Shown here: positions 20,230 through 21,378 of the stretch, piece by piece | Layout: the number at the start of each line of letters is the position of its first letter | Position numbering within the stretch: the stretch's first letter is position 1 | UHGV virus genome: UHGV-0079970 | Length of the DNA stretch: 21,378 nt | Reading direction: 5' to 3' (one strand) | Source of the DNA: a virus | Notes under the pieces: model-generated | Databases searched by the model: none | What the model was told of the DNA's origin: nothing | The model's input: the letters and a program-made list of their open reading frames with translations, nothing else | Translations under genes and position numbers: made by a program

Positions 20230-21363
20230 ATGGATAAAGTCAAATATCCAACAGGCGTCGAAAACCACGGCGGCACATTACGCATCTGGTTTAATTTTAA
20301 AGGTAAACGTGTCAGGGAAAATCTTGGTGTCCCTGACACTGCCAAGAACAGGAAGATCGCCGGGGAACTGCGGACATCAGTATGTTTTGCCATCCGCACA
20401 GGAAGCTTTGATTATGCTGCACAGTTCCCTGACTCCCCCAACCTTCAGGCTTTTGGGGTAAGTAAAAAAGAAATTACGGTGAAGGAACTTGAAGAAAAGT
20501 GGCTGGATCTGAAACGAATGGAAATCTCTGCAAATGCATTCAATCGCTATGAATCCGTTGCAAGAACGATGGTTCCGAAAATTGGAGGCAGTAGACTGGT
20601 GTCATCGGTAACCAAAGAGGAATTGCTGTATATCAGGAAAGATTTGCTTACCGGGTATCAGAATTCAACGAAAAACAAAGCAGCAGCAAAAGGACGGAGC
20701 GTCGTTACTGTAAATTATTACATGACGACAATCGCTGGAATGTTTCAGTTTGCTGCAGATCACGGTTACTTAGAAGCAAATCCCTTCCAGGGAATTAAGC
20801 CTCTTAAAAGAGCCAGGGCAGAGCCAGATCCGCTAACTCGTGACGAATTTATTCGCCTGATAGATGCTTGCCGACATCAGCAGACGAAAAACCTGTGGTC
20901 ATTGGCTGTGTACACAGGAATGCGTCACGGTGAACTGGTCTCCCTGGCCTGGGAAGATATCGATCTGAAGGCAGGAACAATTACCATCAGGCGCAATTAT
21001 ACGAAACTTGGTGAGTTCACTCTACCGAAAACTGAAGCAAGCACAAACAGGGTTGTGCACCTTATCCAGCCCGCTATCAGTGTCCTGAAAAATCAGGCTG
21101 AAATGACAAGACTGGGTAAGCAGTACAACATCAAGGTGCAACTACGTGAATATGGACGTTCAGTGAACCATGAATGTACTTTCGTGTTTAACCCTCAAGT
21201 GGTTAGAAAAAGCGAACAGGTAGGTTTTGTCTACAAAGTCGATTCTGTAGGTGACTCATGGGAAACAGCCATTAAGCGTGCAGGGATCAGGCATCGAAAG
21301 GCATACCAGTCACGACACACTTATGAACCGCCCCGGGTTTCCTGGAGAGTGTTTTATCTGTGA
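20230..21363 (+). CDS. int: Tyrosine recombinase / phage integrase, 3'-truncated (native sequence ends near 21323; last 12 codons come from IS-like sequence)
   Basis: GGAGG SD; N-terminal arm-binding-like region (GGTLRIWFNFKGKRVRENLGV); catalytic-domain box I YTGMRHGELVSLAWEDIDL; start of box II (RHRKAYQSRHTY), then the frame runs into IS-like sequence and stops without the usual downstream His and Tyr residues. Confidence 0.75.
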   Translation: MDKVKYPTGVENHGGTLRIWFNFKGKRVRENLGVPDTAKNRKIAGELRTSVCFAIRTGSFDYAAQFPDSPNLQAFGVSKKEITVKELEEKWLDLKRMEISANAFNRYESVARTMVPKIGGSRLVSSVTKEELLYIRKDLLTGYQNSTKNKAAAKGRSVVTVNYYMTTIAGMFQFAADHGYLEANPFQGIKPLKRARAEPDPLTRDEFIRLIDACRHQQTKNLWSLAVYTGMRHGELVSLAWEDIDLKAGTITIRRNYTKLGEFTLPKTEASTNRVVHLIQPAISVLKNQAEMTRLGKQYNIKVQLREYGRSVNHECTFVFNPQVVRKSEQVGFVYKVDSVGDSWETAIKRAGIRHRKAYQSRHTYEPPRVSWRVFYL

Positions 21364-21378
21364 ACTCAGGCTGCCAGA
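21324..21378. mobile_element. Terminal inverted repeat / end of an IS3-family element (IS629/IS1203-like), continuing beyond the window
   Basis: Sequence from 21324 begins TGAACCGCCCCGGGTTTCCTGG..., the TG-initiated terminus I recall for the IS3 family. Minus-strand frame entering from the window edge stops at 21366-21368, consistent with a transposase 3' end. Identification is from memory, not a database match. Confidence 0.5.

Follow-up and report, generated by a model that had tools for sequence, protein, structure and literature searches.

A copy of the insertion sequence IS629/IS1203 has very probably split the integrase gene (int) of a lambdoid prophage at yecE of Escherichia coli by simple insertion, and the prophage would thereby have lost the capacity to excise by means of its own enzyme. 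The window, i.e., the whole stretch of 21,378 nt that was analysed, is at the same time the entire contig NODE_853_length_21378_cov_24.7 of the ENA assembly ERZ772834 (metaSPAdes, about 25x), and the only defect visible in it is that in int. The features concerned are:

19938-20174, plus strand: xis, excisionase gene, intact and directly 5′ of int (Pfam DUF1233, E = 9.5e-33; reference annotation: excisionase family protein)
20230-21323, plus strand: 5′ part of int, codons 1-364 plus two bases, with the arm-binding domain and core-binding region retained (100% nucleotide identity)
21321-21323, no strand: TTA, predicted 3-bp target site to be duplicated, judging from the TG...CA ends and the ACC duplication in strain 10671
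21324-21378, minus strand: right end of IS629/IS1203, with an imperfect 25-bp inverted repeat at 21324-21348 (exact genomic matches; transposase opposite to int)
21325-21363, plus strand: end of the truncated Int frame, made up of twelve codons from the IS, EPPRVSWRVFYL, and the stop TGA
21366-21378, minus strand: stop and last four codons of IS629 orfB (3′ end of the 10671 transposase CDS at 5368; partial minus-strand gene in sibling contigs)
35443-35536 and 17384-17560 of the ST131 reference prophage, two segments: att core and TGCCCCA region, the int 3′ part lying beyond the window

Truncated integrase and insertion sequence end

The int ORF (20230-21363, plus strand) is the last ORF of the window and translates into 377 aa. 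In nucleotide comparisons it is 100% identical to intact int genes over 1096 nt, until position 21325, and divergent beyond. When the 5,426 complete E. coli genomes were searched, at least 80% of the int query was covered by one match in 328 of them, and among the matches listed the alignment extends from base 1 to base 1096 (position 21325), mostly at 100% identity, with nothing beyond. The intact gene, as found for example in strain 2015C-3121 and ST131 isolate 46, comprises 1314 nt and codes for 437 aa. According to the protein alignment, residues 1-365 are common to the truncated and the 437-aa Int and close with ...YQSRHTY, after which the intact protein reads ACWSLSAGANPSFIASQMGHASAQMVFNVYGAW... 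and the protein of the window its twelve unrelated residues up to the TGA stop. The claims made from the sequence alone, namely that the int frame is intact through RHTY and that the ORF ends 12 codons later without the catalytic tyrosine, are thus borne out by the alignment to full-length homologues, which places the break just after Arg362-His363.

The truncated Int has the two-domain architecture of tyrosine recombinases, consisting of an N-terminal arm-binding and a C-terminal catalytic domain, with the latter at half length. In particular, Pfam assigns Arm-DNA-bind_2 (PF12167) to residues 7-70 (E = 7.6e-24) and Phage_integrase (PF00589) to residues 202-293 (E = 1.5e-10, model positions 3-86 of 172), the corresponding Phage_integrase match in the intact homologue spanning residues 202-395 (model positions 3-165). 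Residues were mapped by alignment to the XerA structure 5hxy and by motif positions: in this alignment Tyr359 takes the His-II position, Arg362 corresponds to Arg-II and His385 to His-III, and Tyr395 lies ten residues past His385, at the end of the Pfam domain match in the intact Int. Of the complete catalytic set of a tyrosine recombinase (Arg-I, Lys, His/Tyr-II, Arg-II, His/Trp-III, Tyr), the truncated Int keeps Arg232, Lys267, Tyr359 and Arg362, together with His363, and lacks His385 and the nucleophile Tyr395, both of which lie beyond the break at residue 365. By its sequence it may therefore be regarded as a tyrosine recombinase by descent and a pseudogene by function.

From position 21324 onwards the window reads TGAACCGCCCCGGGTTTCCTGGAGAG... 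(in a longer stretch, TGAACCGCCCCGGGTTTCCTGGAGAGTGTTTTATCTGTGAACTCAGGCTGCCAGA). Positions 21324-21378 have 22,862 matching places in 4,039 of the 5,426 complete E. coli genomes (E = 9e-20), at which the annotation is that of an IS3-like element IS1203 family transposase, and all 55 nt are identical to thousands of annotated IS1203 sites. Sibling contigs lengthen the IS part to 139 nt, all 139 of which are identical to 'IS629 ORF2' of Shigella flexneri pCP301. An IS3-family terminus of the IS629/IS1203 type had been proposed for this position in the sequence-only reading, and the database search identifies it as the exact right end of IS629/IS1203, by near-identity over the terminal 4-10% of the element.

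Elements of the IS629/IS1203 kind carry overlapping orfA and orfB, fused by a -1 programmed frameshift, and have a DDE transposase. Their imperfect terminal inverted repeats have the form 5′-TG...CA-3′, and the duplicated target site comprises 3 bp, occasionally 4 bp. Compared with IS629, IS1203 and IS3411, which are isoforms within the IS51 group of the IS3 family, the part visible in the window is without any difference, the TG start and the right copy of the imperfect 25-bp repeat being alike. Beyond the contig end lie the second inverted repeat, the duplicated target, the frameshift site and orfA/orfB; of orfB, only the last four codons are within the window, and 24-31 residues within the sibling contigs. 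For a complete copy, the IS1203 of E. coli 10671 was used as reference (5326-6635 of its locus; 1310 bp). Its annotation includes a programmed frameshift; the element lies between the two copies of a 3-bp duplication, ACC, and has TGAACCGCCCCGGTTTTCCTGGAGA and TGAACCGCCCCGGAAATCCTGGAGA as its ends, forming an imperfect 25-bp inverted repeat. The 55 nt of the window align to the orfB-proximal end of this copy, i.e., to the side of the transposase 3′ end, so that the transposase gene, on the minus strand, runs against int. The right terminal inverted repeat at 21324-21348 is TGAACCGCCCCGGGTTTCCTGGAGA, its partner being read only in the copy of strain 10671. Since the terminal TG of the IS overlaps the TG of the target (TTATGCG), the homology to int extends two bases into the IS.

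The contig edge and the fate of the int 3′ end

The sequence-only reading had placed the IS terminus at the window edge. This edge is a contig end, and one that corresponds to a break at k = 55. A stretch of 55 nt of repeat is what a de Bruijn assembly with k = 55 leaves on entering a repeat, and the IS sequence at the contig edge is exactly 55 nt long. IS629 occupies a median of 3 and a maximum of 50 places per genome among the complete E. coli genomes, and the window ends where it does because the short-read assembler could not resolve this multicopy repeat. The left end of the contig (1-150) in turn lies inside a SASA-family (nanS-p-like) esterase gene, which, in genomes carrying it, occupies a median of 2 places and at most 9, so that both contig ends are repeat-induced assembly breaks and not biological ends. 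More generally, a gene that appears to end in an IS at the edge of a short-read contig normally reflects such a break and not a deletion or replacement. As the window is a whole contig ending 55 nt into the repeat, nothing downstream of the IS is visible in it.

The identical junction between int and the IS was found in six further ENA metagenome contigs, none of which (0/6) reads through the IS. Four contigs assembled with MEGAHIT extend into it by no more than the k value that their names give, namely by 139 nt (k141), 125 nt (k127), 117 nt (k119) and, for a second k141 contig, 95 nt, and one sibling scaffold ends 53 nt into it. The junction is therefore contained in seven contigs in total, from at least six samples and from different assemblers and k values. 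None of the 5,426 complete E. coli genomes contains the int-IS junction in one piece.

According to the scenario favoured here, a member of the IS3 family, IS629/IS1203 of about 1310 bp, would have transposed, in the opposite orientation, into codon 365 of int in a lambdoid prophage at yecE, the one found in E. coli ST131 and related strains. The 5′ piece of int would then end after the 12 codons encoded by the IS, and the 3′ piece of 72 codons would still be joined to att and yecE across the IS. For the sample in question we infer the remainder of the IS, the 3-bp TTA duplication and the 3′ piece of int, so that the predicted right junction would have the IS left end ...GGGGCGGTTCA followed by TTA and TGCGTGCTGG, with the left end of IS629 joined to TTATGCGTGCTGG.

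A search with the missing 72 residues returned a cluster of partial integrases, one member of which consists of exactly those 72 residues. This C-terminal partial lies on an identical 3255-bp contig in the two NCBI draft assemblies GCA_042211105.1 and GCA_026221895.1. The contig opens with ATGCGTGCTGG... (ATGCGTGCTGGTCATT...), a start that precedes by one base the place where the window ceases to match int, and carries int codons 366-437, the int stop and the att core, followed by yecE-yecN-cmoA-cmoB; its beginning, A-TGCGTG, is compatible with a duplication of TTA. A 364-aa N-terminal partial is also recorded in NCBI drafts, and as the accessions of the two partials (EOM2876592.1 for the N-terminal and EOM2876540.1 for the C-terminal one) are only 52 numbers apart, they apparently stem from the same genome. 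The protein collection contains this 364-aa version but no N-terminal versions of 363, 365 or 366 aa. Between the N-terminal and the C-terminal half not a single int nucleotide is missing, and complementary contigs that meet at an interruption without loss of int sequence are the pattern expected of a simple insertion. The 3′ end of int had been described as replaced by the IS, which is probably wrong: judging from these contigs it has most likely been split off by simple insertion.

Eight Logan contigs encoding the 364-aa partial stop at the equivalents of positions 21321/21322. A k = 31 unitig should reach about 30 nt into the IS, but these contigs stop 1-2 nt ahead of it; the shortfall of 31 nt looks as though the terminal k-mer had been removed.

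In a true replacement, the 3′ end of int and att would have been lost, either because the IS caused a deletion next to itself or because two IS629 copies recombined, and the prophage would now be fused to a different chromosomal context. That the window stops in the IS, leaving the downstream sequence invisible, is consistent with this, and the copy numbers given above would offer ample substrate for IS-IS recombination. Moreover, the predicted right junction (IS left end + TTA + TGCGTG...) gave no DNA-pattern matches in the JGI metagenomes, IMG/VR or the GTDB representative genomes. The left junction is, however, likewise absent from these three collections, and the absence of the right junction from them therefore carries no weight. 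From the protein collection, too, all eight predicted right-junction products were missing (IS-int hybrids for k = 55 starts, a 55-aa MGH... ORF and partials extended by Y or HY). Against a replacement stands the 3255-bp contig of the two drafts, which starts at the very interruption and carries the remaining int, att and yecE, along with the 364-aa N-terminal partial from what are apparently the same drafts; a deletion would not yield a break at the exact complementary nucleotide. Although these isolates are not necessarily the strain of the metagenome, and their contigs alone do not prove that the element at their break is IS629, a replacement is considered unlikely.

Two candidates for additional junction sequences were discarded. 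Apparent full-coverage matches to the junction in strains 10671 and Al Ain are due to a separate IS1203 insertion just past the int stop (see below), and a 39-aa C-terminal ORF considered as a marker of the right junction was found, on the contigs read, to derive from frameshifted int alleles with no relation to an IS.

It is scarcely credible that the assembler created the int-IS junction by joining unrelated sequences into a chimera and that int is intact in the strain. In favour of this reading, the window is a short-read metagenome contig of about 25x coverage, and its IS part is exactly one k-mer long; but chimeras would not recur at one base, whereas the junction is shared by seven contigs, which come from at least six samples and were produced with various assemblers and k values, the eight Logan contigs end at its position, and the isolate assemblies break at the same nucleotide. 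Finally, that Int homologues naturally end at this point and the likeness to an IS is coincidental is refuted by the 437-aa form in 328 complete genomes, with which identity stops at 21325, by the Pfam integrase domain reaching residue 395 in the intact Int and by the IS match of the terminal 55 nt (E = 9e-20), and no points in its favour were found.

Attachment site and expected loss of excision

A comparison of the two prophage ends in ST131 isolate 46 revealed an 11-bp att core, TTAACTG(C/T)GTG, which starts 19 nt past the int stop. In the distal arm of the ST131 reference prophage there are four TGCCCCA heptamers within 42 nt, and one further TGCCCCA, beside a TGTCCCA variant, lies within the 3′ coding region of int, 71 nt before the core. 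Elsewhere the heptamer has only seven occurrences in 74 kb, counting both strands. From their arrangement, it is plausible that the heptamers represent arm-type binding sites of Int. The insertion point is 239 nt upstream of the att core and 168 nt upstream of the putative arm-type site, and the int-proximal att site should therefore be intact; it is probably contiguous and has been moved about 1.3 kb further away from the prophage body. The earlier statement that the att site is displaced accordingly stands with regard to its distance from the prophage but not with regard to the site itself.

A tyrosine recombinase without its nucleophilic tyrosine cannot cleave DNA. The truncated Int retains the DNA-binding domains and both catalytic arginines, yet without the helix bearing His385 and Tyr395 it would be unable to cut its target, and judging from its sequence the prophage's own integrase should be catalytically dead. 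With the nucleophile Tyr395 and His385 lost, self-excision is expected to fail, and the prophage would be confined to its site as far as its own enzyme is concerned; an Int of the same specificity supplied in trans should still be able to excise it. This expectation, which had been voiced already from the sequence alone, agrees with observations on analogous prophages: the lambdoid prophages Sp3, Sp11 and Sp12 of E. coli O157:H7 Sakai, in which int is disrupted, were predicted to be non-excisable, and no excised circles of them were detected (PMC2669165). They resemble the present prophage in being lambdoid and in having a disrupted integrase, but they are other prophages with other integrases and attachment sites and have several further defects, whereas the window, int apart, agrees at 99.8% identity with an ST131 prophage that is free of disruption, as far as its early region, the only part compared, is concerned.

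Related prophages and significance

Positions 1-21325 of the window correspond, with 99.8% identity, to the early region of the lambdoid yecE prophage of E. coli O25b:H4-ST131, comprising genes for a LexA-family repressor, Rha/Ash, a replicative helicase, Q, two methyltransferases and a DUF262/HEPN pair as well as three tRNAs. The closest phage records are PhiR49_2 from ECOR13 (99.4% nucleotide identity) and the Stx2e phage phiP27 (94.1%). PhiR49_2, phiP27 and the ST131 yecE prophage (99.8-100%) all share with the present prophage the order xis-int-att, the combination of arm-binding and tyrosine recombinase domains and the integration site at the 5′ end of yecE. However, their integrases are of full length (437 aa), whereas the one described here breaks off after residue 365, ahead of His385 and Tyr395.

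With respect to accessory genes, the DUF262/HEPN pair lies at 3659-5508 (plus strand); its DUF262 protein is matched by the PADLOC models NsnA (E = 5.6e-46) and PD-T4-2_A (E = 4.3e-27), and the gene following it bears the RefSeq name HEPN-like nuclease. The pair, which is flanked by the methyltransferase genes at 2008-3057 and 5477-6517 (both minus strand), looks like anti-phage defence cargo of the prophage. In the ST131 reference prophage, a gene with a reverse transcriptase domain and one with a SLATT domain (14928-16827, outside the window) adjoin the distal att site and form another likely defence module. The three phage-borne tRNAs at 1709-1958 (minus strand) are Arg(tct), Arg(tcg) and a tRNA with a CAT anticodon, which is assigned to Met by ARAGORN but to Ile by RefSeq.

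In E. coli 10671 and O157 Al Ain, an IS1203 of the same family resides in the same orientation at the same prophage end. There, the int stop is followed at a distance of 12 nt by the IS with its ACC duplication, and only then by the att core; int is thus kept intact and the att region split, whereas the IS in the window interrupts int itself. The insertion in 10671 and Al Ain is an independent event, and the int-proximal end of this prophage has therefore been struck by this IS at least twice. IS629 insertions are reported to be the main source of variation within the Stx phages of O157, and the present case shares this documented habit of inserting into prophage genes (PMC4587872). That IS629 has landed in a prophage int is hence ordinary and well-documented behaviour of a known element in a known prophage.

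In public data, the split int allele turns up in several drafts and metagenomes (at least two draft assemblies, at least six metagenomes and, in addition, eight Logan contigs), whereas none of the 5,426 complete genomes has this exact allele. The insertion marks one E. coli sublineage in which the yecE prophage is probably immobile; it may serve as a strain marker and predicts that the yecE prophage will not be released on induction. As a more far-reaching idea, the truncated Int might be kept as a catalytically dead DNA-binding protein that occupies the att sites and so locks in a prophage with defence-type cargo, for which we see only a very slim chance. If true, an ST131-related sublineage in circulation would be domesticating its prophage under selection, with the IS as the driver. 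The recurrence of the allele is compatible with such a retained function and equally so with neutral clonal inheritance.

Other int alleles at yecE are broken by frameshifts, as read on Logan, NCBI and ENA contigs, yielding fragments of 398 + 39 aa or of 348 + 56 + 39 aa. The 39-aa remnant is recorded on 45 contigs and thus widespread, and decay of the integrase of the yecE prophage seems to be recurrent.
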